From: Candidatus Saccharimonadota bacterium
Lineage (GTDB): Bacteria > Patescibacteriota > Saccharimonadia > Saccharimonadales > Saccharimonadaceae
DNA: 64,000 nucleotides
Direction: 5' to 3'
Assembly: GCA_017406775.1 (NCBI GenBank)
Contig: JAFQXV010000014.1
Coordinates: 22,962-86,961 of the forward strand
Both the position numbers and the translations under genes were made by a program. This document shows, in pieces, positions 34,759 through 53,381 of this stretch. The stretch's first letter is position 1, and each line of letters starts with the position of its first letter. A model generated the notes under the pieces. It was not told the origin of the DNA and ran no database searches. It saw nothing but the letters and a program-made list of their open reading frames with translations.

Positions 34759-34848
34759 GGAAAGGTGGCCGAGTGGTTGAAGGCGCACGCTTGGAAAGCG
34801 TGTGTGCGAGCAATCGTACCGCAGGTTCGAATCCTGTCCTTTCCGCCA
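34759..34848 (+). tRNA. tRNA-Ser(GGA)
   Basis: GGAAAGG/CCTTTCC acceptor, CACGC-TTGGAAA-GCGTG, long variable arm, GGTTCGAATCC, CCA. Confidence 0.97.
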
Positions 34849-35009
34849 AATTAGCTAAAATAGAACTTGTTCTATTTTAGGAGATTTGAAGGAATGAAAT
34901 GGGATTATTTTATCCTGTCCTTTCCGCCAAATTAGCGACAGAAGAGCTTGCTCTTCTGGAGGTAATTTAAAGGAATGGATCTAGGATCAATATCCTGTCC
35001 TTTCCGCCA
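34831..35009 (+). repeat. Tandem copies of tRNA-Ser(GGA) 3' end
   Basis: ATCCTGTCCTTTCCGCCA at 34831, 34912, 34992 (period 81, 80). Confidence 0.95.
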
Positions 35010-35034
35010 TTTTTTCAGACAAATAGGAGTATAA

Positions 35035-35793
35035 GTGAGCGAAAATATTTTAATTGAGTTGAAAGGTTTAACCAAAAGTTATGGGTATGGCGATACGAAA
35101 TATTTCGCTCTAAAAGATTTTGACCTCACCATTAAACGCGGCGAATTTATTATGATTATGGGGCCATCGGGTTGTGGCAAAACTACACTACTGAATATCA
35201 TTGGCCTACTAGATCGTGCTACCAGAGGTGAATATATTTTAAATGGCGAAAATGTTGCCAATATTTCTATGCGTCGTCAAGCCAAACTTCGTGCTAAAAA
35301 GATTGGCTTTGTCTTTCAGAATTTTAATCTAATAGAAGATTTACCGATTATTGATAATGTTTCCCTCCCTTTAGTTTATACTGGCTATTCTAAAACCGCA
35401 CAACTCAAAAACGCCTCATCTGCGCTCAGGCGCTTTCATCTTCAAGAAAAAGAATACTACTTACCATATCAACTATCCGGTGGTCAGCAGCAAAGAGTAG
35501 CAATAGCACGTGCTATTGTGAATGACCCTGAAATTATTTTGGCAGATGAGCCTACTGGTAACCTAGACTCACGCTCGTCTCATGTTGTGATGGAAGAGCT
35601 AAAGGCCATCCATGAAGAAGGCAACACTATTATTATGGTTACCCATAATCCGGCACTTACTGTTTATGCTACCCGTGTTATTAATATGTTGGATGGTCAA
35701 ATTGATACCGATATTAAAACTGTAGAAGATCAAAACCTTCCCCAACCCATTAGCGTCAAAATTAAAAAACGTAAAAAATCTCGGAGAAAATAA
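35035..35793 (+). CDS. ABC transporter ATPase (MacB/LolD-like)
   Basis: [33 protein letters not shown]. Confidence 0.95.
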
Positions 35794-37026
35794 ATGGCTA
35801 CTTTATTTAGGACTCATCTTAGATTGGCACGTACTTCTATCAAAGAGAATCGTACTCGTTCATTTTTAACTTGTCTCGGTATTGCTATTGGGGTGGCAAG
35901 TATAGTACTAATACTTTCTCTTATGGGTGGGATTTCGAATCTTATTAAAAACGAAATTAGTGAAATAGGTTCAGACTTAATTGTGGTCAGACCAAACTCC
36001 ACTAAAGACTCCGTTACTAGTGTAATAGAAGAATTAACATCATCAAATTCCTTCCAAAATAGTAGTCTTAGTATTAAAGATGTAGATGAAATAAAAAAAT
36101 TAGAAGATATTTCCGCCGTTGCACCAATCGCTATTTCGAATAATAAAATTGATTCGGAAAAAAACAATCTTTCCTCGGTTCAAATTTTAGGGACCAATTC
36201 TGATTTTATTAAGATACAACCTATAGCCCTCCACTACGGCTCATTCTTAAACGATGAGAACGAGGAGAAAACTGTTGTCCTTGGTCGTACATTATCTTTA
36301 GCATTATTTAACACAATCAATAGTACTATAGGTAAAACGATTACTATTATGGGCGAAAAATTCATGATAGTAGGTGTTTTAGATGAAGTGGATAAATCAA
36401 TTAATTTCGATAATATAGATTTCGATAACGCTGCAATCATTAATATCAAACATCTTAATAAAATTGCCGAAACCGCCCAAATTCAACAAATTAATATAAA
36501 AGCTAAAAATACTGATAGTCTCGGCCAAATTTCTGATAATATCAGGAATACTCTCACTAATCAAAAGTTGGGTGATCAAAATTTTACCGTCTCTTATGGT
36601 GATAGTATTATGCATCCCGCCAGTTCACTATTTATGATAGTGTCAGGTATGCTTACTCTGGTGGCCGCAATTTCACTTATTGTAGGTGGAATTGGAGTAA
36701 TGAATATTATGTTGGTATCTGTAGCCGAAAGATCACATGAAATTGGTGTAAGAAAGGCCGTGGGGGCTTCTTCGCGTAATATTTTAATGCAATTCTTATT
36801 TGAGGCTCTTATTTTATCTCTTATGGGCGGCATTTTAGGCCTTCTGCTTGGCTATATTTTGGCATTTATTCTATCCACTATTACCCCATTTTCACCATAC
36901 ATTAGCTGGCATATTATTGCTGTCACTTTTCTTACCACTACATTAATAGGAATTATTTTTGGTATCTATCCCGCAATTAAAGCGGCGGCCAAAAATCCCA
37001 TCGATTCCCTTAGACATTATCGCTAG
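35794..37026 (+). CDS. ABC transporter permease (MacB/FtsX-like)
   Basis: RSFLTCLGIAIGV, GGIGVMNIMLVSVAER..EIGVRKAVGA. Confidence 0.93.
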   Translation: MATLFRTHLRLARTSIKENRTRSFLTCLGIAIGVASIVLILSLMGGISNLIKNEISEIGSDLIVVRPNSTKDSVTSVIEELTSSNSFQNSSLSIKDVDEIKKLEDISAVAPIAISNNKIDSEKNNLSSVQILGTNSDFIKIQPIALHYGSFLNDENEEKTVVLGRTLSLALFNTINSTIGKTITIMGEKFMIVGVLDEVDKSINFDNIDFDNAAIINIKHLNKIAETAQIQQINIKAKNTDSLGQISDNIRNTLTNQKLGDQNFTVSYGDSIMHPASSLFMIVSGMLTLVAAISLIVGGIGVMNIMLVSVAERSHEIGVRKAVGASSRNILMQFLFEALILSLMGGILGLLLGYILAFILSTITPFSPYISWHIIAVTFLTTTLIGIIFGIYPAIKAAAKNPIDSLRHYR

Positions 37027-37048
37027 TTTACGTGCTATAATATCTCTT

Positions 37049-38293
37049 ATGAAGAAGTTATTAGAAAAATTACCATTTTATAATACTGCCGTCCTACCAT
37101 ATCATTTTCTGCAATCAGTTGCGGCCGGCATTAAATATAATTTTCCAGGCAAAAAAATTCATGTTATAGGTGTAACTGGCACCAATGGTAAGACCACTAC
37201 TTGTTTTATGATTTGGCACATGTTAAATCAGGCTGGTATTAAAACCGGCATCATGACAACGGTAGCATGGGGTATAGATCATCTGCAGCCAGAATTAGCA
37301 CACATGACTACAGTGGATGCCTTCACTCTTAATCAAAGAATTTCAAAAATTCAAAAAAAAGGTGCAAGATATTTAGTGTTAGAGATAACATCTCATGCCC
37401 TTGCAGAATTTCGTACGTTAGGTATCCCAGTTGATATTGCGGTATTTACTAATCTCACACACGATCACCTAGATTACCACAAAACTTTTGAAAAATATCG
37501 CAATGCTAAAGGTAAGTTATTTAAAAAAGCGAGTTACTCTATCTTAAACGCAGACGATAAAGCCACAAGCTATTATCAGAAATTATCTAAGCAATATACC
37601 ACATACGGTATAAATAAGGGAGAAAATCAAGCTAAAAATATAGAATTAAGTGTGAAAGGTGTTAAATATACTTTTGGTGATATGGAGATATCAACAAGTA
37701 TACCAGGAGAATTCAATGTATATAATTCATTAGCCGCGGCTTTAGTAGGTAAAAAAGTTGGTTTGACTAATAAAAATATCATAAATGGTATAAAATCTCT
37801 AGAATCCGTTGAAGGTCGTATGAATATTATAGATGAAGGGCAACCTTTTACAGTGATAGTGGACTATGCTCATGCTCCAGATGCTTTGGAGAAAGTTTTT
37901 GAATCAGTTAAAGGTCACCAAGGTAAGATTATATCCGTACATGGTGGAGCCGGACGTCGTGATCCGTCAACTCGTCCAATAAGAGGAGAAATACTAGCTA
38001 AAAACTCCGATTTAGTAATTATTACAGAGGATGATTCACGTGATGAAGACCCAGAAAAAATCGCTGCGGGTTTTATTGAAGGTGCAATTAAAGCCGGCAA
38101 GACTCTCGGTAAAGATCTGATTAAAGAATTAAATCGAGAAAAAGCAATTCAAATAGCGATAGATAGTGCTAAAAAAGGTGATTTAGTTTTAGTTTTAGGC
38201 AAAGGCCACGAAAAGACTATTCTTAGAGCAGATGGTCCTCATGATTTTGAAGATATTAAAGTAGTGAAAAAAATCCTAAAAGCCAAAAAATAA
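37049..38293 (+). CDS. murE: UDP-MurNAc-tripeptide ligase
   Basis: GVTGTNGKTT, LEITSH, NLTHDHLDYH, VDYAHAPD, DDSRDEDP, GKGHE; start at ATG 37049. Confidence 0.92.
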   Translation: MKKLLEKLPFYNTAVLPYHFLQSVAAGIKYNFPGKKIHVIGVTGTNGKTTTCFMIWHMLNQAGIKTGIMTTVAWGIDHLQPELAHMTTVDAFTLNQRISKIQKKGARYLVLEITSHALAEFRTLGIPVDIAVFTNLTHDHLDYHKTFEKYRNAKGKLFKKASYSILNADDKATSYYQKLSKQYTTYGINKGENQAKNIELSVKGVKYTFGDMEISTSIPGEFNVYNSLAAALVGKKVGLTNKNIINGIKSLESVEGRMNIIDEGQPFTVIVDYAHAPDALEKVFESVKGHQGKIISVHGGAGRRDPSTRPIRGEILAKNSDLVIITEDDSRDEDPEKIAAGFIEGAIKAGKTLGKDLIKELNREKAIQIAIDSAKKGDLVLVLGKGHEKTILRADGPHDFEDIKVVKKILKAKK

Positions 38294-38294
38294 A

Positions 38295-39044
38295 TTATTC
38301 TGGGATATATTCCGCTAAACCATCTACTATCTTATCATTCTCTATTCCTAAAGTATGGGCAATTGCGGTTGCGCAAGCCATATAAGAAACGGCCGTTTCT
38401 CCAGGCACAAATGTTGCTACCGTTAAAATATCAGTCTTGATTGAGAAAGTTGCTTCTGTCCCTTTACTGTAAAGTTTAGAATTGAGAATTTTTACTTCGG
38501 AACTAGATTGTCCGTATGTGATAGTATCATTCTTCCCTCTAAATTCGGCAAAAGTATCATAATTAATATCATCATGATTTAAAACCACTATTTCTGGTTT
38601 CATATCAAATAATGTTTTTTCGTTATCAAGAAATTCTTTTGGTTCCATATCTTTAAGTCCAGAAGTTACGAAATTAGTCATAGCGGCTACCGAAATTGGC
38701 AATCCATAAAAAACGTTATCTCTTAAACCTTCAGCTGGAACAGTTACTACTACATAATTTGCCCCCGCCTTCCAAGCATCACTTAAAAATTTATGAAGCA
38801 TACCAATTTTAAAAGGTTGATCAGACGCAAGTACGGCCACCTGCTCACCGGCCGCTCTAAGAATTTCGTGGACGTAATGAGCTACCGTTGTTTTACCAGT
38901 AGAACCAGTAATAGCGATAAGTTTCATGTCTTTTATCGGATTTCCGTAATACGACTTTAAAATCTTAGCTTTAATTTTTTGTGTTTTATCTTTGAGCCCA
39001 CCATTTTTGTCATTGCGTTTATTGGATTTTTCCCTCTCACTCAT
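38295..39044 (-). CDS. Degenerate Mur-ligase central-domain protein
   Basis: LIAITGSTGKTT P-loop, VLNHDD; lacks the C-terminal domain. Confidence 0.7.
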   Translation of the reverse strand: MSEREKSNKRNDKNGGLKDKTQKIKAKILKSYYGNPIKDMKLIAITGSTGKTTVAHYVHEILRAAGEQVAVLASDQPFKIGMLHKFLSDAWKAGANYVVVTVPAEGLRDNVFYGLPISVAAMTNFVTSGLKDMEPKEFLDNEKTLFDMKPEIVVLNHDDINYDTFAEFRGKNDTITYGQSSSEVKILNSKLYSKGTEATFSIKTDILTVATFVPGETAVSYMACATAIAHTLGIENDKIVDGLAEYIPE

Positions 39045-39143
39045 AATACCCTTATTATATCACTTGTTTATCAGTTTTCAACCTAATTCATCTTGACACT
39101 AATGTGTAATTCAGTTATTAAATAAAGTAGGTTTATAAAAAAA

Positions 39144-40310
39144 ATGGATCCACATTTATCTAATAATACTGAAAACACTCAAGGCGATTTATCTACTGGA
39201 TGGGAAAACATAAAAGATAACGCGCCACCGTTTCATGGGGAGCCGGAATTTAGGGCTGAAAATACTTTTAGTTCATCTTACGAAAAAATACCAGAAGATA
39301 AAAAACACGATATTTTTACAAAATCAAATTTTGGTGATTATTATTTTAAAATAAAAAAAGAATTTCCGGATGATGAGTATACCGATGAGCTACTACGAAT
39401 ATGCAGTCCCGTTTATGCGTTGGAAAAGCTTAATGGTATAAATTTTTACTCGTCCATGCCATTTGAAGCCCATCGCCGCCCTCATATATTACTCTATGCA
39501 GAAACCCCAGATGGAATAAGCGCCCATGTTTTTTACCGAAGTAACTCATCTATGAATTGGAGATTTTTACCTAGGATTGTCGATGGTTGGTATGATAAAA
39601 CTACTAGCCACGAAGATAGCATTAATTTACCAACCGAGATTCAGGCTAAAGTAGAGCATATTTCAGACTCCGAAGATGATAAAATACCTCAAATTAGTAA
39701 TGAATTTATTGGCTATATCGTAAATGACACTTTTGATTCTCGATTATCAACTAAAAATAACAGAACTGATATTTCTAATTTTGTTACGTGCGCTGGTGAA
39801 TTGGCGCTAGGTTATTTTGGGAATGATTATAATAATCCTTTTGAAAATTCATTTTTTGGCGATAACTGGATTCTCCCCGATCCAGAAACTTTAAATATTC
39901 CAGCCGAAAAGGAACCGGATTTTTCCAAATTAATATGTGAATGGCGATCACATAACGAAGAATATATTTTTCTAAGTAAAGATGGCGCACTTACCGCACG
40001 GTGTTTTGATTCTTTAGATCATTCTCTTAGATATTTATTTTATTCCACTCTTGAAGGAAAAACCTGGATTAGTAGTATTGAATGTATTAATTCTAAAACA
40101 AACAACTTAGGGTTAAGAGAAAATTACATCGAACCGGGTGCTCTCACTACTCCCCTTTTAGAATACCATTGTAAGGAGTCGTGTCAGGATGGAAAAAATG
40201 GTGGTGGACATTGGGGTAAAGATAATTTTATGCATTATCCGTATGCAGATATGAGCGATTATTTAGATAAAATACCCATCATTAAAAAATTTCATCAGTA
40301 TTACCAATAA
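39144..40310 (+). CDS. Hypothetical protein
   Basis: 388-aa ORF, no recognisable motif. Confidence 0.7.
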   Translation: MDPHLSNNTENTQGDLSTGWENIKDNAPPFHGEPEFRAENTFSSSYEKIPEDKKHDIFTKSNFGDYYFKIKKEFPDDEYTDELLRICSPVYALEKLNGINFYSSMPFEAHRRPHILLYAETPDGISAHVFYRSNSSMNWRFLPRIVDGWYDKTTSHEDSINLPTEIQAKVEHISDSEDDKIPQISNEFIGYIVNDTFDSRLSTKNNRTDISNFVTCAGELALGYFGNDYNNPFENSFFGDNWILPDPETLNIPAEKEPDFSKLICEWRSHNEEYIFLSKDGALTARCFDSLDHSLRYLFYSTLEGKTWISSIECINSKTNNLGLRENYIEPGALTTPLLEYHCKESCQDGKNGGGHWGKDNFMHYPYADMSDYLDKIPIIKKFHQYYQ

Positions 40311-40331
40311 AAAAAACGGCTTCTGGAGCCG

Positions 40332-40427
40332 TGACGAAGGCGAGAGGATTCGATTGGAGCGAAGCGACAAACGAATCTCGCTTTTTGTGTGTTGCGATAG
40401 CAACATGGCGGAAGCGAGAGGATTCGA
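40332..40427 (-). repeat. Diverged copy of tRNA-Ser(CGA) 3' end 74 nt downstream of the tRNA
   Basis: TGACGAAGGCGAGAGGATTCGA (40332) vs TGGCGGAAGCGAGAGGATTCGA (40406), 19/22. Confidence 0.85.
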
Positions 40428-40495
40428 ACCTCCGAGACTGTTGCCAGCCCACACGATTTCGAGTCGTGCGCCTTCAACCACTCGGCCACGCTTCC
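40406..40495 (-). tRNA. tRNA-Ser(CGA)
   Basis: GGAAGCG/CGCTTCC acceptor, CACGA-CTCGAAA-TCGTG, long variable arm, CCA. Confidence 0.97.
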
Positions 40496-40690: not shown

Positions 40691-40767
40691 GTGCCCGTAG
40701 CTCAGCTGGATAGAGCGTTTGCTTGCGGAGCAAAAGGTCGTAGGTTCGAATCCTGTCGGGCATACCA
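40691..40767 (+). tRNA. tRNA-Arg(GCG)
   Basis: GTGCCCG/CGGGCAT acceptor, TTTGC-TTGCGGA-GCAAA anticodon arm, GGTTCGAATCC, CCA. Confidence 0.93.
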
Positions 40768-40852
40768 TAACAGAAAAAACAAGAATTTATTCTTGTTTTT
40801 TGTGTTTTGGGATGGTCGAAAAAGGATCCCCATCCTGTCGGGCATACCATAA
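40750..40852 (+). repeat. Copy of tRNA-Arg 3' end
   Basis: ATCCTGTCGGGCATACCATAA at 40750 and 40832 (period 82). Confidence 0.95.
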
Positions 40853-40912
40853 TAAAAACAAGGCCAAAGGCCTTATTTTTATTTTAAAATTATTTTTTGC
40901 TATAATAAAATT

Positions 40913-45435: not shown

Positions 45436-46383
45436 ATGGAAATTCCGATTACGCAGAGTAAAGAATGGGCAAACTTACAATCTGAACTTGGTGAAAAATA
45501 TTTTTTTGAAGTAGGGAACAACTACCAATTCTTAGCTATCTTAAAAAATACACCTCTGGGTAAATATCTTTATTTGCCATATGGACCGTTTATTGAGCCT
45601 GGTAAAAATCCACAAAAAATCATCATAGCTCGCGTTATGCGTAAAATTCGTAAAATTGCCAACAATAACAAGGTTTTTTTTATTCGTATTGAGCCTCAAA
45701 TCTCTGATTTTACCAAAAATCTTCCTTATAAGATGAAGAAATCTACCGATCTCAACCCTAAAGAGACTTGGATTTTAGATTTAGCCGGTAATGATGATGA
45801 ATTAAAATCTAAGCTCCCATCAAGACTCTGTCGTTACCATAAAAATGCCGAAAAGAATGGTCTTACGATAGAAATTTCACACAATCCAGACGATATAGAT
45901 TATTTAATTAATCTCCAGAAAGCCCTTGCAAATAAAAAAGGCATTAATACTTTTTCAAAAGAATATCTTAAAACGGAGTTATCCCAACCTTTCGCATCGC
46001 TATATTTAGTTAAATACCAACCACCGGAACAAAATATCTCAGAAGTAGTTGCAGCAGGTTTAGTATTTGATTATTCTAAAACAAGGTATAATCTTCAGGG
46101 TGCTCAATCTGAGCAGGGAAGAAAACTACACGCTACCGGAATTCTAACTATTCAACTTATCAAAGATGCCAAAGCTAAAAATCTTAAATATTTTGATTTT
46201 TGGGGTATTGCCCCAGATGATGCGTCGGACAATCACCCATGGAAAGGTTTTACTAACTTCAAAAAAACATTTGCAGGCCGCGAAGTTAAATATCACGGCA
46301 CCACAGATATTATTTTGAAACCATTAAAATACAATGTTTATCGCGTCATCAGGAATATCAATAGATTACTAAGGAGAGTATAA
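45436..46383 (+). CDS. FemAB/MurM-family aminoacyl transferase
   Basis: ITQSKEW, YLPYGP, FIRIEP, YFDFWGI, GFTNFKKTF. Confidence 0.9.
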   Translation: MEIPITQSKEWANLQSELGEKYFFEVGNNYQFLAILKNTPLGKYLYLPYGPFIEPGKNPQKIIIARVMRKIRKIANNNKVFFIRIEPQISDFTKNLPYKMKKSTDLNPKETWILDLAGNDDELKSKLPSRLCRYHKNAEKNGLTIEISHNPDDIDYLINLQKALANKKGINTFSKEYLKTELSQPFASLYLVKYQPPEQNISEVVAAGLVFDYSKTRYNLQGAQSEQGRKLHATGILTIQLIKDAKAKNLKYFDFWGIAPDDASDNHPWKGFTNFKKTFAGREVKYHGTTDIILKPLKYNVYRVIRNINRLLRRV

Positions 46384-47445
46384 ATGAAGTTTATTCATCT
46401 AAACGCAACCGAATACTCTAAATTTGCCGATAAAAGCCCCTATAAATCGTTTCTCCAGACTGCAGAAATCGCCAAATTAAGAGAAGAGAATGGTTGGGTA
46501 GCATATTATTTTGGGGTAGAAAAAGACAACAAGATAATCGCTGCAGCTATGGTGGTAGCTAAACCCACTTTTCTTGGTAAATCCACCTATTATATTCCAG
46601 GTGGACCACTCTTAGATTACGAGGATACGGCCGTAGTAAACTTTTTCTTTAAAAATCTCAAAAATTATGCTAAATCTCACAATGGCTATTTACTTCATAT
46701 CGAACCATATTACGAATTAATTGAACGCGATCGTGATGGCAAGAAAAAACCAGATGGCTTCAATCATCAAAAGGCTCTCGGTAACCTAAAAAAACTTGGT
46801 TTTCTACCTACGCATTCAGATAATCCAAAATATCTATTTGTTTTAAATATCAAAAATAAAAAAGAAGACGAACTATTTGCTAGCTTTAAACAAAATACCC
46901 GTAACCTTATTAGTCGCGCTACTAGAAAGGGGGTTGTAGTTCGTGAGATTGGCAGGGAAGAGCTGAATAGTTTTAAGCAAATTACCGCATCAACCTCAGA
47001 GCGTCGTCACTTTAGTGATAAATCTTTAGATTATTACGAAACGATGTATGATTTATTTGCAAAAAAAGACGAAGTTAAATTTATCATTGCAGAAATAAAC
47101 GACAAAAAGCCAATCCCAGTAGCCGCCGCCATGTTTATGACTTACGGCGATGAAGTTATCTATCTATTTTCTGGTAGCGATGAAAAATATATGAAAGAAT
47201 ACAATGCCCAATATGCTATTCAATGGTATATGATTAAATATGCCATCAAAAATAACTTCAAACGCTATAATTTCTATGGCATTCAAGGCCTCCCAGATCC
47301 AAATAAACCAGGTTACGGTATCTATAAATTTAAAAAAGGCTTTGGTGGTCACGTGGTAGAACTAATCGGCGCTTATGAATTGCCATTAAATAGATTTTTT
47401 TATAATACTCACAAAATTTTATCAAAAATAAAGCATCTAAAATGA
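46384..47445 (+). CDS. FemAB/MurM-family aminoacyl transferase
   Basis: FLQT, YIPGGPLLDY, FKQNTRNLI, YNFYGI, GIYKFKKGF. Confidence 0.92.
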   Translation: MKFIHLNATEYSKFADKSPYKSFLQTAEIAKLREENGWVAYYFGVEKDNKIIAAAMVVAKPTFLGKSTYYIPGGPLLDYEDTAVVNFFFKNLKNYAKSHNGYLLHIEPYYELIERDRDGKKKPDGFNHQKALGNLKKLGFLPTHSDNPKYLFVLNIKNKKEDELFASFKQNTRNLISRATRKGVVVREIGREELNSFKQITASTSERRHFSDKSLDYYETMYDLFAKKDEVKFIIAEINDKKPIPVAAAMFMTYGDEVIYLFSGSDEKYMKEYNAQYAIQWYMIKYAIKNNFKRYNFYGIQGLPDPNKPGYGIYKFKKGFGGHVVELIGAYELPLNRFFYNTHKILSKIKHLK

Positions 47446-49835
47446 ATTTATCAGGTCTCACATCTAAACAAGTTAAAGTAAAAAAAGAACAGGGAAGAAT
47501 TAACCGTGTTCCAGGTAAAAACACCAATTCAATTGGCAAAATAATACTAAAAAACACCTTAACCATTTTTAATTTAGTTAATATCATCCTAGCCATATTG
47601 ATCATTTCTGTTGGTGCCTATAAAAACCTCCTCTTTGTTCTAATTGCTATAGCAAACACCCTAATTAGTATAATTAACGAAATTCGTGCCAAGAAAACCG
47701 TCGATAAAATGCGTCTAATTGCCGAAAAACAACCTACGGTGATTAGAGAAGGTAAAAACATCCAGATTAAACAATCCGAAATCGTAGACGGCGACCTCAT
47801 AGTCTATGGTTTTGGGGATCAGGTTGTGGTGGATGCGCAAATTGAACAGGGAAGCGTAGAAGTTAATGAGTCTTTTATCACTGGTGAGCAAGACAATGTC
47901 CTTAAAAAACCAGGCGATAAATTGATTTCCGGTAGTTTTATAGTTTCAGGAACATGTAAAGCTACTGTTACCGCTGTTGGGGCCGAAAACTTCATCAATA
48001 AGCTAGAATCGAGCGCGCATACCATAAAAACCGCAGATTCTAAACTTTTTACTATTATGAATAACATCGTCAAATATATTTCAATTATACTTATTCCAAT
48101 TGGCGTTCTTCTGCTTTGGGCACGTTTTCGTGTACCAGACACTACTCCTGAAGTTGCAGTCACTAGTACAGTCGCTTCACTTATCAATATGATTCCAGAG
48201 GGTCTAATCCTCCTCACCTCATCCGTTCTCGCACTAGCCACTATTCGTCTTTCACGTCAAAAAGTTTTAGTCCAAGATCTTTACTCAATTGAAACTCTAG
48301 CCCGTATAGACTGCATAGCACTAGATAAAACTGGTACGCTTACCACCGGCAGAATGACCGTAAAAGATATAATTCCAGCAGAAGGCCACACAAAAAATGC
48401 CCTAGAAAAAGCACTCAAGCTTATTTTAAGCGCAACAGCTACCGATAACGCTACAAGTACCGCCTTAAAAGAAAAACTGCTTAAAAAGGCAAAATTTAAG
48501 CCCACGGAGCAAATCATAGAATTTATTCCATTTTCATCCGATCGAAAATATTCCGGTGTTCGTACCAAAGATGCTACTTACCTTATGGGGGCTCCCGAAA
48601 TTATTGCTGGTAATACACCAGATTTTCCAGGCACTTTCCGCATCCTCGCGGTAGTGAAAGACGAACACCAAAAAGGTGGTTTAGAGGAATCTGTCGGAGG
48701 TTACGACCGAGACAGAAGGAGCGCGTCCCCCGTAACGACGGGCGAGCGCGACTCCGTGTCCGATAAACCACCTTTTGATGTTTTAGGTTATATTCTCCTC
48801 GAAGACGAACTTCGAAAGGATGCCGAAGAAATTATAAATTATTTTTACAAAAACGATGTTGATATTAAAATTATCTCTGGCGACAATTTAAAAACAGTAG
48901 AAACCATTGCTAAAAATACTGGCATTAAAAACATCTCCGGTATCGATCTTTCCACTATAAAAGGCGATATTAATTATGAAAAATTAGTCAAAAATTATAA
49001 TATTTTTACTCGTGTTAAGCCCGCCCAGAAGAAATCATTGATTCTAACCCTTAAAAAGCTAGGTAAGACCGTTGCTATGACCGGTGACGGCGTTAATGAT
49101 ATTCTGGCTATGAAAGAAGCTGATTGCTCTATCGCAATCGGAGAGGGCTCCGATGCTGCTAGGCGTTCCGCTAAACTTGTTCTTTTAAGTAATGATTTTG
49201 CTGGCGTACCCAAAATAATCGCTGAGGGTCGTCAAACCATCAATAATCTAGAGCGTTCTACTACTTTGTTTATCGCTAAAACTGTTTACGCCTCCATTTT
49301 GGCAGTAGTTTTTATCTTCTTACCATTCAGGTCTCCATTTGCTTCACCCGTAGAAATGTCGCTTCTCAATTTTGCCTGCATTGGCTTTCCGGGCCTTATA
49401 CTCGCCCTAGAACACAATACTAGCCGCATTAAAAATCTCTTTGTTAAAAACATCCTGCAATACTCTGTTCCGGTCGGTCTTACTATCTCTATAGCAATGA
49501 TCGTTTTGTCTTGTCTTACCCATAATAATTTTTTCCCAGTACACGAATTGTCCACCATTGCCATTTTTGTTACCTTTATCGTTGATTTAGCCTTGATTTA
49601 TCGTATCTCTAGACCGCTTACTCCGCTCCGTAGTGCACTCCTGATTACTATTATCGGTATTATAGTCGCCGCTTTTGTTATTCCATTTTTACATGATTTC
49701 TTTGATTTTATTTATCTTGGCCGCAATGGGATTATTATCCTTGCAGTCACAGCTGTCCTGTCACTAGTAATTTTTGAAGTCATCCATCATTTAGTTCGCT
49801 ATTTCTCGTTACGTTTTGATAAAAAATCTTACTAA
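47442..49835 (+). CDS. P-type cation-transporting ATPase with internal insertion
   Basis: ESFITGE, IPEGL, DKTGTLT, ISGDN, MTGDGVND. Confidence 0.96.
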   Translation: MNLSGLTSKQVKVKKEQGRINRVPGKNTNSIGKIILKNTLTIFNLVNIILAILIISVGAYKNLLFVLIAIANTLISIINEIRAKKTVDKMRLIAEKQPTVIREGKNIQIKQSEIVDGDLIVYGFGDQVVVDAQIEQGSVEVNESFITGEQDNVLKKPGDKLISGSFIVSGTCKATVTAVGAENFINKLESSAHTIKTADSKLFTIMNNIVKYISIILIPIGVLLLWARFRVPDTTPEVAVTSTVASLINMIPEGLILLTSSVLALATIRLSRQKVLVQDLYSIETLARIDCIALDKTGTLTTGRMTVKDIIPAEGHTKNALEKALKLILSATATDNATSTALKEKLLKKAKFKPTEQIIEFIPFSSDRKYSGVRTKDATYLMGAPEIIAGNTPDFPGTFRILAVVKDEHQKGGLEESVGGYDRDRRSASPVTTGERDSVSDKPPFDVLGYILLEDELRKDAEEIINYFYKNDVDIKIISGDNLKTVETIAKNTGIKNISGIDLSTIKGDINYEKLVKNYNIFTRVKPAQKKSLILTLKKLGKTVAMTGDGVNDILAMKEADCSIAIGEGSDAARRSAKLVLLSNDFAGVPKIIAEGRQTINNLERSTTLFIAKTVYASILAVVFIFLPFRSPFASPVEMSLLNFACIGFPGLILALEHNTSRIKNLFVKNILQYSVPVGLTISIAMIVLSCLTHNNFFPVHELSTIAIFVTFIVDLALIYRISRPLTPLRSALLITIIGIIVAAFVIPFLHDFFDFIYLGRNGIIILAVTAVLSLVIFEVIHHLVRYFSLRFDKKSY
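48671..48776 (+). repeat. In-frame palindromic insertion (family A) in P-type ATPase
   Basis: Perfect 13-bp IR AAAAGGTGGTTTA / TAAACCACCTTTT; arms TCTGTC..GGT-TACG-ACC..GACAGA and CCCGT-AACG-ACGGG. Confidence 0.9.
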
Positions 49836-50063
49836 TAATCCATTTATGTTAAATAAAAATATGGAAAATAACAACTTCGAAAAACAATTCAAGCGCAGTA
49901 TAGATAATGCTACTCTCGATTCAAATATCTATAAACCAGCGAAGAAGATACTTCACTTGAAAATAACACCAATGATGAAAAGTTTTTTATTATAACTACG
50001 CCTCAATAGCTGATGACCTCACTATTTATAATTGTGGGGAAGATACTGAGGAATAATTTAATT

Positions 50064-51353
50064 CTATTCTTCGATTGATATTCTGGGATAAATATTTAAG
50101 CTATAGGGGTCAACTGGCTTAACTCCAGTTTGTATCTCAAAATAACAAGCTGCTGCTACCATTGCTCCATTATCACCAGAAAGAGAAGTAGCGGGGAAAA
50201 ATACAGGGACATTCGGGGATGTTTCATTTTGTGCCATAAGTTTCGGCGAGCGCCCCTGAGCGTGTTCCGTATTAAATATTTCGAGTATTTGATTCCTGAG
50301 TTCTTGATTCGCACTCACCCCTCCAGCAATTACGATCGATTGTGTTTCGGGATATTCTTCTAGCGCCATCTCCAATTTTTCACATAAAATATCTACCGCA
50401 GTTTTCTGGAACGATGCTGCAAAATCACACACCTGTTGCGGAGTTAATAAGTCTTTTAATTTATGAGATGGATAAGAGATCGGCACTTTGGCCTCTTTTT
50501 GTACAGCCCTCAGTACTGCAGTTTTTAATCCGGAAAACGAAAAATCCAACCCCTCAACCTTTGGATGTGGCAACCTGTATTTATTGAGATCGCCCGGCCG
50601 AAGGTTAGTGTGTTCTTTGAGGACCATAAGCTTGACCGAACGGCCTTGAGTGTGTCCGAGAAGAACACACTGACCTTCGGCTGCCATACTAATACTAGGT
50701 CCTCCAGGATAAGGTAGCCCTAAAATTTTTGCCACCTTATCAAAACACTCTCCCACCGCATCATCATGAGTAGTGCCTATAATCTCAAACTGATTATGAC
50801 CACGCATATATAAAATTTGTGTATGTCCCCCTGATATTACTAAAGCCAACAAGGGGAATTGCGGGTGTTTAAGAATAGTGCTTTGAGGGGGCTCTTGGAG
50901 GCTACTGCCGAGAGCGTAGGACGCCGAGCCTCGTGAGGACGGGCGTGAGGACGTCCGGTCCCAAGAAACACTATTCCGAGCATCTGTGCTTAACCAGTTT
51001 GCATACACATGTGATTTCAGATGATGTACGGCGTATAAAGGCTTATTGTGTAGTATTGCTAAAGTTCTTGCCGTTAATGTCCCAATCAAAAGAGAACCGA
51101 GCAGCCCCGGTGCATGAGTTACCGCAATGGCATCTATATCATCCCAATTACATGACGCATTGGCAAGGGCCTTATTAATAACCGGCATAATCGCTTCAAG
51201 ATGCGATCTTGCGGCTACTTCGGGAATTACACCACCATACTCAGCAAAAATATCAATTTGACTCACAACCACATTAGAGAGGATAGAAACCCCATCTTCT
51301 ACTACGGCTGCTGCTGTCTCGTCGCAACTGGTCTCAATTCCCAAAATTTTCAT
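50064..51353 (-). CDS. tsaD: t6A synthesis protein TsaD with three internal insertions (429 aa)
   Basis: ILGIETSCDET, EVAARSH, HHLKSH, VISGGHT, DDAVGECFDKVA, FSFSGLKT, AGGVSAN, DNGAMV; start at ATG 51353. Confidence 0.96.
   Translation of the reverse strand: MKILGIETSCDETAAAVVEDGVSILSNVVVSQIDIFAEYGGVIPEVAARSHLEAIMPVINKALANASCNWDDIDAIAVTHAPGLLGSLLIGTLTARTLAILHNKPLYAVHHLKSHVYANWLSTDARNSVSWDRTSSRPSSRGSASYALGSSLQEPPQSTILKHPQFPLLALVISGGHTQILYMRGHNQFEIIGTTHDDAVGECFDKVAKILGLPYPGGPSISMAAEGQCVLLGHTQGRSVKLMVLKEHTNLRPGDLNKYRLPHPKVEGLDFSFSGLKTAVLRAVQKEAKVPISYPSHKLKDLLTPQQVCDFAASFQKTAVDILCEKLEMALEEYPETQSIVIAGGVSANQELRNQILEIFNTEHAQGRSPKLMAQNETSPNVPVFFPATSLSGDNGAMVAAACYFEIQTGVKPVDPYSLNIYPRISIEE
50211..50286 (+). 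repeat. Decayed palindromic insertion (family B) in tsaD
   Basis: Core CCATAAGTTTCGGCGAGCGCCCCTGAGCGTGTTCC aligns with the copy inside 50595-50683; degenerate flanking IR; ends approximate. Confidence 0.7.
50595..50683 (+). repeat. Palindromic insertion (family B) in tsaD
   Basis: GCCGAAGGTTAGTGTGTTCTT / AAGAACACACTGACCTTCGGC (20/21); core CCATAAGCTTGACCGAACGGCCTTGAGTGTGTCC. Confidence 0.88.
50864..50984 (+). repeat. Palindromic insertion (family A) in tsaD, antisense to the ORF
   Basis: GAATAGTG / CACTATTC stem with G-T extension; core GGAGGCTACTGCCGAG and CTCGT-GAGG-ACGGG. Confidence 0.8.
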
Positions 51354-51465
51354 ATCAAAATTATACCACATACCCCTATTTATTACCACTTAAAATTGAC
51401 TAGAAACAGGAAATATGCTATAATTAATATTACTATTCGTTTTCGTTTTGTAAGGGGTGAGATAA

Positions 51466-51825
51466 TTGCAAAAACCGCACGAACGTACTTTGAAAATGAT
51501 GGAAAACTATGTCAGACTACACGAAGAAGGGAGGAGTGTCTCAGAGATTGCCAAACTATACGGCCTGAGCGCCAGTACAGTGTACGGCCGTCTGGCTGAG
51601 ATCGCAAACAAGGCAGGAGTGTCCAGAGAGTCTCTTCTGGAAAAGCCTTTCACGGCGAATCACTCTGGACGTAACTTTACACCCGTTAAGCCGGTCAATA
51701 CTACGGAGCTCGAGAGGCGCTTTAATGAGGTTCTAGATAACCTCAAAAAAGTGCGTGCGGAGCTCAGTCTGTGCATCGCTAAGCAAGAAGAAAACGCAAA
51801 AATTCTGACCATCAGGAAGGAGTAG
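51466..51825 (+). CDS. Helix-turn-helix protein with coiled-coil tail
   Basis: LHEEGRSVSEIAKLYGLSASTVYGRL; start codon uncertain; GC-rich. Confidence 0.7.
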   Translation: MQKPHERTLKMMENYVRLHEEGRSVSEIAKLYGLSASTVYGRLAEIANKAGVSRESLLEKPFTANHSGRNFTPVKPVNTTELERRFNEVLDNLKKVRAELSLCIAKQEENAKILTIRKE

Positions 51826-51827
51826 GT

Positions 51828-52676
51828 ATGAATTTTCGCACTGCCACCAGTAGAAAGATCAAAACCCTCATCAAACAAGGGTTTACGAACGAAGAACTCT
51901 GCGAACGCTTTGAATGTACGGAGGAGGAGCTAGAAGGACATATCCGCCTACTGTTTAAGACTGGCGCCGACGGTGTTTTAAGGGATTTAGGCGCTAATCG
52001 CAAGAAGGCGCGCCCTAAGCTTCGCGAAGAAGCGAGCAATCTTTCAGAGCAGTCTGAACTGGAATCTAATTCTGAGTCAGAACCTGAATGCGTGGTCGTA
52101 CCTACTTTGGTACAAGAGTCACCTACTAAGCCAACTCTTGACGAACTCATTCAGAAAGAGCATGCCCTAAGTAATGACGTAATATCTCTAGAGGTTACCC
52201 ATACGGAACTGACCGGAAAGCACCGTGTCATCATAAAACGACTTCGTGAGATTGACGACGAACTAGAAGGGCTCGAGCGGCAGACTCAATCCTGTCGCGA
52301 CCGCGCCACTCAGCTAGACACCCAGGCAAACGAAATCGTCACCGAGATGAACGATATCTCAGATCAGCGCCACACCAAGCTCGCGGAGCTCGATACGGTT
52401 CGCAAAAAGATCGAAGAGATGAGTACCGTATCAATCTACGTCTTCTCAGACGGTCGCATTGGTGCTCCGGACAATCCAGACTTTATCCTGGAGGATGAGG
52501 GATACCAGGTCCTAAAGGATGAGCTCCTCACGCGTGAGGAATGCCTGGATCTTCGGGTGCGAGATATTGTCACGCTAGCCCGTCTCAAGATCATTAGCGA
52601 AAAAGCCACAAAGTTTTCGCTGGTTTTCGAGGATCAGTCTCTAGAATCTGTCTATACTATGCTCTTTGTAGAGTAG
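51828..52676 (+). CDS. Coiled-coil hypothetical protein, possible N-terminal HTH
   Basis: GFTNEELCERFECTEEEL; long heptad region; AAGGAG upstream. Confidence 0.7.
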   Translation: MNFRTATSRKIKTLIKQGFTNEELCERFECTEEELEGHIRLLFKTGADGVLRDLGANRKKARPKLREEASNLSEQSELESNSESEPECVVVPTLVQESPTKPTLDELIQKEHALSNDVISLEVTHTELTGKHRVIIKRLREIDDELEGLERQTQSCRDRATQLDTQANEIVTEMNDISDQRHTKLAELDTVRKKIEEMSTVSIYVFSDGRIGAPDNPDFILEDEGYQVLKDELLTREECLDLRVRDIVTLARLKIISEKATKFSLVFEDQSLESVYTMLFVE

Positions 52677-52696
52677 TAGACGACAAGCTTTTCATT

Positions 52697-52722
52697 AAAA
52701 GTGCCGCATCTGTGGCACTTTT
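52697..52722. terminator. Bidirectional intrinsic terminator
   Basis: AAAAGTGCC-GCATCTGT-GGCACTTTT between convergent genes. Confidence 0.7.
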
Positions 52723-52752
52723 TGTATCTAAAATATATCACCAAATGAATAA

Positions 52753-53184
52753 TTACTCGTGATGATACGGACCATTAATGGCGATTTGTGAAGCTCTGTA
52801 AACCTGTTCAGCTACAACCAGCCTTGCAATCATATGAGGGAATACTAATTTAGAAAAACTCCATACAAAATCCGAACGTAAACGTACCTCATCTATAAAC
52901 CCATACGCTCCCCCAATCAAAATGACGATATTTTTTCCTTCCAAAAACACCTTTTCTAATCTCTGAGATAATTCAGGTGATGATATATTTTGTCCACGCT
53001 CATCACAGCAAATTACATAGTCATCACTTTTAAAAGGCCACTCCACCAATTTCCGTGCTAACTTCTCTTCCTCCAAAAAATCCCAGGTTATATCGTACGG
53101 TTTCCTCAGTCTTTTTTCGTATTCGGAGCAAGCCTCTGCACACCAACCAACATTCTTCTTTCCCCCAGCAATTATTTTTATCAT
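52753..53184 (-). CDS. rlmH: 23S rRNA (pseudouridine1915-N3)-methyltransferase
   Basis: CDERGQNISS, LIGGAYG, VFPHMIARLVVAEQVYRA..PYHH; start at ATG 53184. Confidence 0.95.
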   Translation of the reverse strand: MIKIIAGGKKNVGWCAEACSEYEKRLRKPYDITWDFLEEEKLARKLVEWPFKSDDYVICCDERGQNISSPELSQRLEKVFLEGKNIVILIGGAYGFIDEVRLRSDFVWSFSKLVFPHMIARLVVAEQVYRASQIAINGPYHHE

Positions 53185-53216
53185 GCAAAGATTATACCAT
53201 AACCTTTGCAAAAAAA

Positions 53217-53381
53217 TGGCTGGACCGGCAGGATTCGCACCGAGCTTTAGCGAGGTCCGAATCCTCGTTTTTACAGTTTTTTACATAAAAAAATGGCTGG
53301 ACCGGCAGGATTCGATTCGAAGAACGAATCCTCGCTTTTCCAGTGTATCTGAAAGAGACATGGCTGGACCGGCAGGATTCG
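53217..53381 (-). repeat. Tandem copies of tRNA-Gln 3' end
   Basis: TGGCTGGACCGGCAGGATTCG at 53217, 53294, 53361 (period 77, 67). Confidence 0.95.

Follow-up and report, generated by a model that had tools for sequence, protein, structure and literature searches.

tRNA genes and downstream units

The window, that is the whole stretch of 64,000 nucleotides analysed, contains exactly four tRNA genes, Ser-GGA, Ser-CGA, Arg-GCG and Gln-TTG, as found with ARAGORN and Rfam. The host is a ruminant-gut, Nanosyncoccus-like Saccharibacterium. All four tRNAs are followed by units of 67-82 nt that end in a copy of the last 18-22 nt of the tRNA, as a first-pass annotation had correctly reported. This copy is designated X. 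An inverted partial copy (AGGAT, GGATTCG or GCGAGAtTCG), designated X', is found a few bases 5' of the direct copy in every window unit. The features are listed below.

34759-34848, plus strand: tRNA-Ser(GGA); reference X is the last 18 nt, ATCCTGTCCTTTCCGCCA (34831-34848, positions 59-76)
34849-34929, plus strand: Ser-GGA unit 1, 81 nt; trailer hairpin 34849-34886, minihelix 34891-34925, exact 18-nt X copy 34912-34929 with the GCCA tail free
34930-35009, plus strand: Ser-GGA unit 2, 80 nt; trailer hairpin 34930-34967 with core CAGAAGAGCTTGCTCTTCTG, minihelix 34972-35005, exact X copy 34992-35009, then a T-run and an ABC-transporter start at 35035
40316-40332, minus strand: canonical intrinsic terminator, ACGGCTCCAGAAGCCGT and T-run, beyond the Ser-CGA unit
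40332-40405, minus strand: Ser-CGA unit, 74 nt; small hairpin, then long stem GCGAGAtTCG...CGAATCcTCTCGC
40406-40495, minus strand: tRNA-Ser(CGA); reference X 40406-40427
40691-40767, plus strand: tRNA-Arg(GCG); reference X 40750-40767
40768-40849, plus strand: Arg unit, 82 nt; A/T-rich trailer hairpin, then inverted copy TGGgATGgTCGA..GGAT and exact X copy 40832-40849
40860-40874, plus strand: canonical intrinsic terminator, AAGGCCAAAGGCCTT and T-run, beyond the Arg unit
53217-53293, minus strand: Gln unit 2, 77 nt; stem GAGGATTCG/CGAATCCT around gacctcgctaaagctcggtg (fold z -2.5), exact X copy 53217-53237, then a T-run and the rlmH promoter and start
53294-53360, minus strand: Gln unit 1, 67 nt; hairpin, then minihelix CTGGA..GAGGATTCG-loop-CGAATCCTGCC..TCCAG with CCA free (fold z -3.2), exact 21-nt X copy 53294-53314, then a T-run
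53361-53435, minus strand: tRNA-Gln(TTG); reference X 53361-53381, 21 nt, positions 56-76
53473-53445, minus strand: promoter-like TTGACG-17-TAGAAT, immediately upstream of tRNA-Gln

The sequence ATCCTGTCCTTTCCGCCA is found exactly at 34831, 34912 and 34992 on the strand of Ser-GGA, ATCCTGTCGGGCATACCA at 40750 and 40832 on the strand of Arg-GCG, and CGAATCCTGCCGGTCCAGCCA at 53361-53381, 53294-53314 and 53217-53237 on the minus strand at the Gln locus. The Ser-CGA unit has a single decayed X copy (40332-40353) in which 19/22 bases are retained and CCA is changed to TCA. The earlier description of a copied 3' end behind each tRNA is accordingly exact for Ser-GGA, Arg and Gln and only approximate for Ser-CGA. 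At two loci, Arg and Ser-CGA, the last copy precedes a canonical terminator.

The first 32 nt of Ser-GGA unit 1 are identical in a unit of a related species (L037), unit 2 is 92% identical to a unit of another (L009), and the Ser-CGA unit belongs to family D3 (86%). A fifth tRNA of the same genome, Ser-GCT, located just outside the window (L100, 16795-16887), also has a downstream unit, giving 5/5 unit-bearing tRNAs in about 104 kb of the host genome.

Folding, conservation and covariation of the units

In minimum-free-energy folds the inverted partial copy pairs with the direct copy in 6/6 window units, in agreement with the earlier proposal that an inverted complement rebuilds a T-stem-like hairpin. 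All six fold as a trailer hairpin and an acceptor/T-arm-like minihelix, with z from -2.5 to -4.8: -3.1 for Ser-GGA unit 1 (-21.2 kcal/mol), -4.4 for Ser-GGA unit 2 (-30.3 kcal/mol), -4.0 for the Ser-CGA unit and -4.8 for the Arg unit. The minihelix is about two layers longer than the real acceptor/T-arm stack and has no T-loop. A free (N)CCA tail or longer is found in 5/6 units, CCA being paired in the Arg unit. The X' of the Arg unit takes in the complement of CCA, so the sequence inverted here is X, not the tRNA 5' strand; this unit contains the inverted repeat I1, with arms of 31 nt that are 84% complementary. Its first hairpin has a T-run and may halt most transcripts ahead of the minihelix.

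Unit interiors are 0.67-0.92 identical between species, against 0.56 for both shuffled sequences and a tRNA-tRNA spacer. In the adjacent ABC gene, four-fold sites have reached saturation between species, their identity being 0.29-0.43 wherever the ortholog could be aligned. Pairing in the long hairpin is 81.7%, compared with 66% in shuffles, and its 97 double-change cells (36 +/- 4 in shuffles) were reached by 0/500 shuffles. The G-U (17) and A-C (10) mismatches do not tell a sense-strand RNA structure from a DNA palindrome, and the complementarity could be a product of the origin of the units by inverted duplication and not of selection. Variants of X' (GGAAtGG..CTAGGAT) are common to several species and are not perfect local complements. 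Where the tRNA has changed (L012, L070) the changes in X' are compensatory.

Occurrence in related species

The window and 80 related loci from about 80 related species were searched for copies of the last 18 nt of each tRNA with at most 5 mismatches and at most 260 nt downstream, counting only tRNAs with full flanks. Such a copy was found for 55/148 tRNAs and was perfect in 38 of these 55. Upstream copies were found for 0/148, the best upstream match always having at least 6 mismatches. The downstream copies are therefore far above chance. No reverse-complement copies of the last 16 nt (at most 2 mismatches) were found on either side. The pattern extends to other tRNAs of the host and its relatives and is not an assembly duplication. 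The wording that every tRNA is followed by units holds for this genome and not for the lineage, in which about 37% of tRNAs carry a copy. About 63% of the orthologous tRNAs in relatives lack a unit, the presence of which is patchy across species, and some copies are decaying (Ser-CGA in the window, Ser-GCT in L100); the units are therefore dispensable.

The copies begin sharply at one of two tRNA positions, 59 (giving 18 nt) or 56 (giving 21 nt), with a length of 17-19 nt in 39/60 units and 21-22 nt in 18/60. They match the tRNA variant of their own species at 32/33 variant sites. Unit sizes form three narrow classes, with no kb-size forms or relatives, and the interiors between copies are palindromic and only 44-165 nt long. 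Class B units have their junctions within the centre of the T-loop palindrome. Interior families are common to different tRNAs, class C occurring at Arg, Gln and Ser-CGA, class D at Ser-GGA and Ser-CGA, and the S-core hairpin at both Ser-GGA and Ser-GCT. In L008, the 3' end that closes a unit behind tRNA-Arg is Ser-like. Many arrays of related species repeat the same locus-specific hairpin behind every X.

Comparison with the tRNA-linked repeats of E. coli

The tRNA-linked repeats (TLRs) of E. coli K-12 are reportedly described in Egan & Landy 1978 and Rudd 1999. The loci are the tyrT/tyrV repeats (RtT RNA, rttR, Rfam RF00391) and rrA/rrB/rrF between rrn T1 and T2, TLRs lying downstream of the 5S genes of rrnA, rrnB and rrnD and of tyrT. 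TLRs are defined as located just downstream of a tRNA or rRNA gene in 1-5 copies per locus and as repeating, in their final 18-19 bp, the exact 3' sequence of the adjacent gene; they are transcribed through T1 read-through and processed beside the repeat (PMC8144298).

At tyrT-tyrV of strain MG1655 the X sequence ATCCTTCCCCCACCACCA (positions 59-76) has six occurrences, with units of 175-178 nt and GGGGAAGGAT as X'. The rrnB layout is X-T1-insert-X-T2, in which a locus-specific hairpin recurs behind each copy. The 5S-linked TLR has the same 18-bp repeat; 5S genes have no T-loop.

The layout of the Saccharibacterial units is formally identical. In both systems one to several tandem units are located immediately downstream of a stable-RNA gene in the same orientation, the final 18-19 bp of the unit reproduce the 3' end of the upstream RNA with a 58/59 boundary at tRNAs, and an inverted partial copy pairs with the copy. 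The order of copy, hairpin or terminator, insert, copy, hairpin or terminator is also the same. One general architecture at unrelated tRNAs had rightly been recognized before, and the window pattern is the known TLR phenomenon of E. coli, an identity that the first-pass annotation missed. The function of the E. coli TLRs is likewise unexplained.

A covariance model built from the E. coli tyrT TLRs alone, its E-values being weak and rough as a link between the two organisms, ranked rrnB at the top (24.7 bits, E 0.002), followed by the class C units of L041 (20.9 bits, E 0.015) and L006 (E 0.13), full length and in register. The reverse, Saccharibacterial, model matched the window Ser-GGA and Arg units (E 1e-4 and 1e-3) and, with the same roughness, all four tyrT TLRs, each match stopping precisely at CCA (E 0.01-0.9). 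The longer class C relatives of the window units are thus weakly linked to the E. coli TLRs in both directions (E about 0.01). The motifs GGTTCG-N3-CGAGCGAA(A)GCGAG and, as seen by eye, GGATGAGAA(G/C)C are common to both organisms. Rfam RtT (RF00391) gave no match to any Saccharibacterial unit.

The window units are much shorter than the E. coli TLRs (67-82 nt versus about 100-178 nt) and consist of a bare hairpin plus minihelix, the multi-branched core being absent. Unlike in E. coli there is a second copy class of 21 nt, the density is much higher (5/5 tRNAs in 104 kb) and the host is a candidate-phyla-radiation bacterium, which may use a different set of nucleases for RNA processing.

Function and origin of the units

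With moderate confidence we regard the units as TLR-like RNA modules, transcribed together with the tRNA, whose mimicry of the tRNA 3' end serves processing. Each would be a small non-coding part of the tRNA transcription unit, placed after the CCA end of the tRNA and before the real terminator or next gene. In order, it has a trailer hairpin, X' as a degenerate inverted copy, a loop and a direct copy X (positions 59-76 or 56-76). The loop is short, with a structured insert of about 110 nt instead in relatives. Transcription from the tRNA promoter would read through, X' and X would pair into an acceptor/T-arm-like minihelix with (N)CCA free, and this would display the determinants found at the end of the tRNA itself. 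RNase P, acting on the 5' side, and 3' trimming nucleases may then cut the read-through transcript at every copy, freeing small CCA-ended RNAs and parting the tRNA from the downstream RNA. Slippage or unequal exchange between X copies would let arrays grow and shrink and keep the copies identical to the neighbouring tRNA.

Plant mitochondrial t-elements, the MALAT1 mascRNA and 3'ETS-leuZ, a bacterial tRNA-trailer sRNA, are cases in which part of a tRNA or its spacer is imitated within a longer transcript, and they are used by or derived from tRNA-end processing. They are neither copies of the end of a neighbouring tRNA nor tandem arrays, unlike the units, but resemble them in the proposed working (general knowledge and the introduction of PMC8144298). 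Among the interpretations offered earlier, that of CCA-ended tRNA mimics or small RNAs is favoured by the minihelices in 6/6 units (five with free (N)CCA), by the terminators after the last copy and by the transcription and processing of the E. coli counterparts (PMC8144298). Against processing it can be said that a tRNA-like end is needed, yet identity with the neighbouring tRNA is not.

Somewhat unlikely, in our estimate, is a neutral origin, in which template switching or snap-back at the trailer hairpin and the palindromic T-loop (TTCGAA) gives a direct-inverted-direct triplication of the tRNA 3' end, comparable to tandem inversion duplication, that slippage then remodels and multiplies into functionless units. 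The direct-inverted-direct order, the long palindromes that extend from X across the hairpin into X' (I1/I2 at Ser-GGA, I1 at Arg), the Arg X' as an inverted X copy and the same locus-specific hairpin behind X in many arrays all agree with such an origin, as do the class B junctions at the T-loop centre, the decayed copies and the many unit-free orthologs. However, the conservation of the interiors far exceeds saturated neutral divergence, X' variants are common between species and compensatory in L012 and L070, and the same interior families occur at different tRNAs. Furthermore, unit-free species have no post-CCA hairpin for snap-back at Ser-GGA, and the 18-nt boundary is found in E. coli even at 5S genes, which have no T-loop.

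Cargo-less miniature mobile or integrative elements, or their scars, with a T-loop att site and a crossover at 58/59 or 55/56, are improbable; such elements might be folded single-strand hairpins, with the X/X' stem mimicking the tRNA gene for a tyrosine recombinase acting in trans. The attL/attR sites of phages and genomic islands likewise form a direct repeat from the T-loop to the tRNA 3' end downstream of an intact tRNA, and tandem arrays are possible in both. Sharp identity boundaries at 18 and 21 nt are what a site-specific crossover predicts, and the sharing of interior families between tRNAs, the Ser-like end of the Arg unit in L008, the patchy distribution and a Xer-type tyrosine recombinase encoded about 6 kb past the window end (L097, 17837-18775) point the same way. 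In contrast to attL/attR, no integrase, transposase or cargo adjoins any array, the arrays being directly flanked by housekeeping genes, and the interiors are conserved, covarying and of discrete sizes without kb-size relatives. The units are therefore not island scars, and the two earlier options of minimal integrative elements and scars of excised islands lack support. The sequence after each copy is duplicated host sequence, a locus-specific hairpin in many arrays of related species as in E. coli rrnB, which is not the pattern of foreign DNA. X and X' always suit the local tRNA, a fit beyond the reach of a transposing element unless selection or copying is involved, and an 80-bp double-stranded circle is an implausible recombination substrate. 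The unit motifs searched for were not found in a Saccharibacterial or phage context among viral contigs. A role as decoy att sites is conceivable but has no support.

Retroviral plus-strand strong-stop DNA halts at m1A58, which gives an 18-nt primer-binding site. By a very improbable analogous route, a terminated pre-tRNA trailer snaps back beside CCA and primes a reverse transcriptase, the tRNA 3' end is copied to position 58, and a second snap-back gives X'-loop-X cDNA that recombines into the tRNA locus. This would fit the copies of exactly the last 18 nt, beginning just after A58, in the largest class and E. coli (the length of the retroviral primer-binding site), the location of X' immediately next to the U-tract side of the trailer hairpin and the CCA complement in the Arg unit. 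However, no reverse transcriptase turned up in the 104 kb that were examined, the 21-nt class extends past position 58, m1A58 is not known for the host, and the E. coli 5S-linked TLR has its 18-bp repeat without tRNA modification.

The sequences are metagenome assemblies, but an assembly or binning artefact duplicating tRNA ends can be dismissed, because the repeats (18-22 nt) are below the assembler k-mer length and independent contigs agree: unit interiors are unique, independent runs, strains and about 30 independently assembled species concur, the same arrays occur on five independent metagenome contigs, and both Ser-GGA units are spanned by independent Logan contigs (without differences where the strain is the same, and with 3 SNPs in a strain of about 97% identity).

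With the units read as TLR-like modules, the TLR layout, long known in E. coli, is now found in small size in a very distant bacterium with a tiny genome.

Units downstream of the tRNA genes

The source of the window is a Saccharibacterium (TM7) belonging to the ruminant-gut group Candidatus Nanosyncoccus. The ValRS encoded in it shares 62-80% identity with those of 80 species-level genomes of the group, and gut metagenome scaffolds carry proteins identical to those of the window. Four tRNAs are found in it with ARAGORN and Rfam. The survey comprised the window and 85 fetched loci, together 1.5 Mb with 167 tRNAs (ARAGORN).

The first-pass annotation had described each tRNA as followed by short units that end in a copy of its own 3' end. 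The copy is exact in five of the six window units and decayed in the one at Ser-CGA.

Units downstream of the tRNAs of the scaffold
Ser-GGA: two units, 81 and 80 nt long, both with the last 18 nt of the tRNA at their end
Arg: one unit, 82 nt, ending in the last 18 nt of the tRNA
Gln: two units, 67 and 77 nt long, both with the last 21 nt of the tRNA at their end
Ser-CGA: one unit, 74 nt, ending in a decayed copy with 19/22 bases and CCA changed to TCA
Ser-GCT (fifth tRNA, about 6 kb beyond the window start): one unit, ending in a decayed copy

All six window units, and all 60 units of at most 200 nt in the window and related loci, start at the CCA of the tRNA and lie on the same strand. A downstream copy of the last 16 nt on the same strand (at most 2 mismatches, within 400 nt) was found for 57 of the 167 tRNAs; there were no upstream copies at this threshold and no reverse-complement copies in either flank. 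When the last 18 nt were used, a downstream copy with at most 5 mismatches was present at 55 of the 148 tRNAs with full flanks, 38 of the copies being perfect, and the best 18-nt match in the upstream flanks of the same tRNAs always had at least 6 mismatches. The wider survey of tRNAs advised in the first-pass annotation thus found the pattern at 5/5 tRNAs examined in this genome and at only part of those in the relatives, the 55 of 148 including the window.

In L002 (17664-17738), a near-identical metagenome contig, the T-loop of tRNA-Gln has TTGAATCC in place of TCGAATCC, and CGAATCC is unchanged in the two copies downstream. Either the strain differs at an otherwise invariant T-loop position or the contig has an error there. 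The apparent two-copy Gln array of this contig is merely the result of the base change and was rejected as a lost unit.

A probable replication origin region (window 26000-33500) was placed by dnaA (29803-31161), dnaN (31402-32502) and recF (32499-33485), which stand at the point where the GC skew, strongly negative over the first 26 kb, levels off. All tRNA arrays of the window are at most 25 kb from it.

Anatomy and folding of the units

The length of the copied segment, X, is sharply bimodal: 18 nt in 25 units, with a further 9 one base longer, or 21 nt in 14 units, with a further 4. The extension in the 9 copies corresponds to the chance expectation. Across the 60 units the copy measured 17-19 nt in 39 and 21-22 nt in 18. 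The copy therefore begins just after tRNA position 58 or position 55. Unit lengths, from X end to X end, cluster at 62-67, 75-85 and 165-183 nt, and no forms of kb size were found.

The order within a unit is a hairpin directly 3' of the CCA, a degenerate inverted copy of X (X'), a short loop and X. X' reads AGGAT or GGATTCG, often after the complement of the acceptor strand. In the Arg unit it also contains the complement of CCA, which shows that X, and not the 5' strand of the tRNA, is the segment inverted. X' can pair backward with the upstream X, giving long palindromes with arms of 26-31 nt, or forward with the downstream X. In many arrays of relatives a similar hairpin specific to the locus (T) comes after each X, be it the one in the tRNA or a copy, and the arrays read X-T-I-X-T, where I is an insert holding X'.

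Folded alone, the six window units gave one common structure of two domains, a trailer hairpin and a minihelix with X as its 3' arm (z-scores -2.5 to -4.8). A single-stranded (N)CCA or longer tail is present in five of the six; in the Arg unit the CCA is paired.

The heptamer GCGAAGC (or GCGAAAGC) is about threefold enriched in the 250 nt downstream of tRNAs over all loci (0.47 vs 0.15 per kb) and recurs in the E. coli TLRs (L110). GCGAAGC forms an unusually stable DNA mini-hairpin, and its enrichment could hint at a single-stranded-DNA stage.

Position in transcription units and proposed processing

A terminator scan of the tRNA strand called terminators only after the Arg and Ser-CGA units and none inside units. 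The canonical G+C-rich terminators at these two loci stand 3' of the last copy, and the predicted promoter of Gln lies directly 5' of the tRNA, which together place the units inside the tRNA transcription units; at Arg and Ser-CGA this position follows from the predicted terminators. T-runs occur after the CCA at the second Ser-GGA unit and at both Gln units, but at least 3-4 nt from the stem. At Ser-GGA the tRNA begins 13 nt after the upstream methyltransferase gene (window 34746-35035), the end of which is overlapped by a -10-like box, TGCTAGAAT. An ABC-transporter gene begins with a GTG 25 nt past the final copy of the 3' end, and neither a terminator nor a promoter lies in those 25 nt. The tRNA, its units and the ABC/FtsX operon may form one transcript. 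A search of RNA-seq runs found none that contains the locus.

In the mechanism proposed here, read-through transcripts would fold into a trailer hairpin and a CCA-ended minihelix, and the machinery that matures tRNA ends would cut at each copy. The cuts would free small RNAs and insulate the tRNA from the downstream RNA. Slippage between X copies would alter the number of units and keep the copies identical to the tRNA.

Conservation and covariation

At four-fold degenerate sites of the adjacent ABC gene, divergence between species has reached saturation (identity 0.29-0.43 for orthologs that can be aligned), and the similarity of tRNA-tRNA spacers, 0.56, is no higher than that of shuffled sequence. 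The unit interiors have identities of 0.67-0.92 between species, and the first 32 nt of the first window Ser-GGA unit are identical in a unit of the related locus L037. The hairpin core AGAAGAGCTTGCTCTTCT (at most 2 mismatches) occurs across the 1.5 Mb solely in units downstream of tRNAs, namely of Ser-GGA in several species and of Ser-GCT in the window's own genome. A metagenome scan with the core CAGAAGAGCTTGCTCTTCTG gave 7 matches, and the three loci with a called tRNA all adjoin tRNA-Ser(GGA). Two matches on unrelated high-GC contigs were rejected, and no new tRNA types or free forms were seen among the five of seven matches examined.

The long hairpin of 19 aligned class A units is 81.7% paired, compared with 66% in shuffles, and has 97 double-change cells against 36 +/- 4, a value reached by 0/500 shuffles; slid controls score far lower. 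At variant sites of the tRNA 3' end the copy has the species' own variant in 32 of 33 cases, a figure somewhat biased by the way copies are detected. X' changes along with the tRNA variant, for example in the related locus L012, with GGGAGCG opposite CGCTTCC.

The rival explanation with most weight is that the units are neutral products of template switching or tandem inversion-duplication. It would have to account for interiors conserved beyond neutral saturation. Against constraint stand the absence of units from most orthologous tRNAs and the existence of decayed copies, and the complementarity may come partly from an origin by inverted duplication. The mismatches (17 G-U, 10 A-C) do not discriminate an RNA structure from a DNA palindrome.

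Tests for integrative elements

The first-pass annotation had considered minimal integrative elements or scars of excised islands. These readings are not borne out, as no integrase, transposase or cargo adjoins the arrays and housekeeping genes lie on both sides: tRNA methyltransferase, ABC/FtsX, Mur ligases, PAP2, HIT, ValRS, FemAB, P-type ATPase, TsaD, RlmH and FtsK. Ten neighbouring ORFs were scanned with Pfam for integrases and transposases; apart from one small HTH protein, all matches were to housekeeping domains. The tyrosine recombinase to be looked for was seen once, as an Xer-like gene about 6 kb past the window end and more than 15 kb from the nearest array; none adjoins an array. 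This gene encodes 312 aa (fetched contig L097, 17837-18775), and a sister contig (L098, 15419-16356) has it in two pieces, ORFs of 90 and 213 aa.

No foreign cargo was found between the repeats, the interiors being 44-165 nt of hairpin-forming non-coding sequence, and no copy of the same tRNA end was found at kb distance, save matches to other tRNAs. In species without units at Ser-GGA the CCA runs straight into the ribosome-binding site of the ABC gene, and compared with these the Ser-GGA unit is a clean insertion of about 80 nt. A phage attP for the Ser-GGA 3' end was sought and rejected: the three viral contigs found were one phage tRNA array and two matches inside large ORFs, and were uninformative. 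In viral contigs the search for the class C core (class C units being the longer forms of relatives, with a structured insert of about 110 nt) matched nothing but an unrelated repeat of giant viruses. With the pattern GAACCGTAGGTTCNNCCGGAC, a dispersed repeat, GGGAACCGTAGGTTCCCCCGGACGCCCCCTCCC, came up in giant-virus-like, AT-rich IMG/VR contigs (L089-L096); it has no relation to the tRNA units.

Cargo-less mobile or recombining elements rank second among the rivals. The sharp boundaries of the copies and the interior families common to different tRNAs agree with such elements. So does a class C unit in the related locus L008 (about 7140-7290), which lies 3' of a tRNA-Arg and ends in ATCCTGTCTATTCCGCCA, a tRNA-Ser-like and not an Arg 3' end, suggesting that units have been exchanged between tRNA loci. 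An origin of the units by reverse transcription, suggested by the 18-nt copy length, comes third. An assembly artefact is effectively excluded: the repeats are shorter than assembler k-mers, DNA runs confirm the assembly, and both Ser-GGA units are spanned by Logan contigs of independent runs, with no differences in the same strain and 3 SNPs in a strain of about 97% identity. Logan joints that skip part of the first unit were rejected as polymorphism; their short sides are 20-26 nt and they probably belong to other species.

Window 45436-47445 and 36959-39044 contain two adjacent FemAB-family genes and, nearby, two Mur-ligase-like genes, one of them on the opposite strand. FemAB enzymes use aminoacyl-tRNA for cell-wall cross-bridges, and it is conceivable that CCA-ended minihelices serve Fem enzymes. 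Two large ORFs have no Pfam domain on record, one at 893-4027 (minus strand, 1044 aa) and one at 39144-40310 (388 aa).

Comparison with the tRNA-linked repeats of E. coli

Tandem units of this kind are known from E. coli K-12 as tRNA-linked repeats (TLRs), with 22 units at ten loci and 1-5 per locus (PMC8144298; Egan & Landy 1978; Rudd 1999). They have been known since 1978, without an assigned function. Transcripts of the three 5S-linked TLRs arise by read-through of terminator T1 and undergo processing beside the repeat; the authors propose that the repeat is a processing signal (PMC8144298). The literature found on TLRs discusses essentially only E. coli and its relatives, and a search on minihelices and tRNA trailers gave nothing relevant.

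The Saccharibacterial units lie downstream of a stable RNA in the same orientation, as TLRs do, and like them end in a copy of the 3' end of the upstream RNA (18-19 bp in TLRs; 17-19 or 21-22 nt in most units here). By the detection criterion used, loci of the window have 1-2 units and those of relatives 0-2, where TLR loci have 1-5 tandem units. Layout and boundary are also those of the MG1655 loci. At tyrT-tyrV, X is ATCCTTCCCCCACCACCA (positions 59-76) with six occurrences, the units are 175-178 nt and an inverted copy, GGGGAAGGAT, precedes each. The rrnB layout is X-T1-insert-X-T2, with one TLR inside the T1-T2 terminator region. The units are in this formal sense identical with TLRs; their boundaries are sharp, their hairpins conserved and covarying, and their folds mimic a tRNA end.

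The class C units at Arg, Gln and Ser-CGA in relatives have in common with the E. coli TLRs the motifs GGATGAGAA(G/C)C, AGGTTCGAC and GGTTCG-N3-CGAGCGAA(A)GCGAG and, as modelled, a fold with a four-way junction that X'/X closes; this core is absent from the short window units. Covariance models gave matches in both directions, with weak and rough E-values. The model of six class C units (R1) matched the Ser-GGA (E 1e-4) and Arg (E 1e-3) units of the window, the Ser-GCT unit outside it (E 3e-3) and 4/4 tyrT TLRs, each ending exactly at CCA (E 0.01-0.9). The model of four tyrT TLRs (R2), run on 490 kb, matched rrnB first (E 0.002), followed by class C units of the relatives L041 (E 0.015) and L006 (E 0.13). 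With nhmmer the E. coli TLRs gave no matches to the Saccharibacterial loci, the query alignment by mistake also containing the 119-nt stretch that carries the tyrV gene. The Rfam family of the tyrT/tyrV repeats, RtT (RF00391), scored 133-137 bits with the four E. coli tyrT units as positive control and had no match in the window at the gathering score; at E <=1 it matched none of the loci L006, L040, L041, L052, L029 and L100 of relatives, nor E. coli rrnB. The tRNAs were the only known RNA families in the window (Rfam). Given the weak E-values and the lack of an RtT match, the window units are classed as TLR-like by architecture; homology to the E. coli TLRs is suggested for the longer forms in relatives only.

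Class C units occur at Gln (L006), Ser-CGA (L041) and in L052, L040 and L050 (Arg). In those at Gln and Ser-CGA the insert is immediately preceded by a T-arm piece of Arg type, CGTAGGTTCGA (tRNA-Arg positions 48-58). They have the appearance of 3' thirds of a tRNA into which about 70-110 nt have been inserted, exactly between positions 58 and 59, and so have the E. coli tyrT units (CTTCGAccAAGGTTCGA). In three relatives tRNA-Ser(CGA) and its downstream unit are covered by weak Rfam matches (26-30 bits; gathering score 70) to sX4, a proteobacterial sRNA:
L040, 6001-6169
L029, 7446-7571
L052, 5405-5554

In a preprint, mobilome sequencing is reported to give raised coverage of the E. coli tyrT-rttR-tpr region under stress, for which the authors offer no mechanism (10.1101/2024.07.17.603846); this might be relevant to excised TLR forms.

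Significance

This kind of element is already known, though obscure and unexplained. What appears to be new is its presence in a bacterium of the candidate phyla radiation, the minimal forms of 67-82 nt, the second class of 21 nt, the density, and the cross-phylum similarity of the longer forms. An improbable reading is that TLRs are ancient phylum-spanning RNA modules that mimic the tRNA 3' end, share a conserved core built on a four-way junction (closing stem X'/X, GAACC..GGTTC hairpin, purine-rich arm and variable hairpins) and pass from one tRNA or 5S locus to another through exchange precisely at the 3'-terminal 18 nt. If this were true, they could be a self-propagating element that uses mature stable-RNA 3' ends in the manner of a retroviral primer-binding site or, alternatively, a general processing or regulatory device kept minimal by small genomes.

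The minimal forms, a hairpin and a CCA-ended minihelix, would be a simple test substrate for the enzymes that process tRNA ends, and species with 0, 1 or 2 units form a natural comparative series. The same architecture and 18-nt boundary in a Saccharibacterium with a reduced genome, at 5/5 tRNAs and conserved beyond neutral saturation, argue that the layout stems from a general mechanism or function connected with stable-RNA 3' ends.
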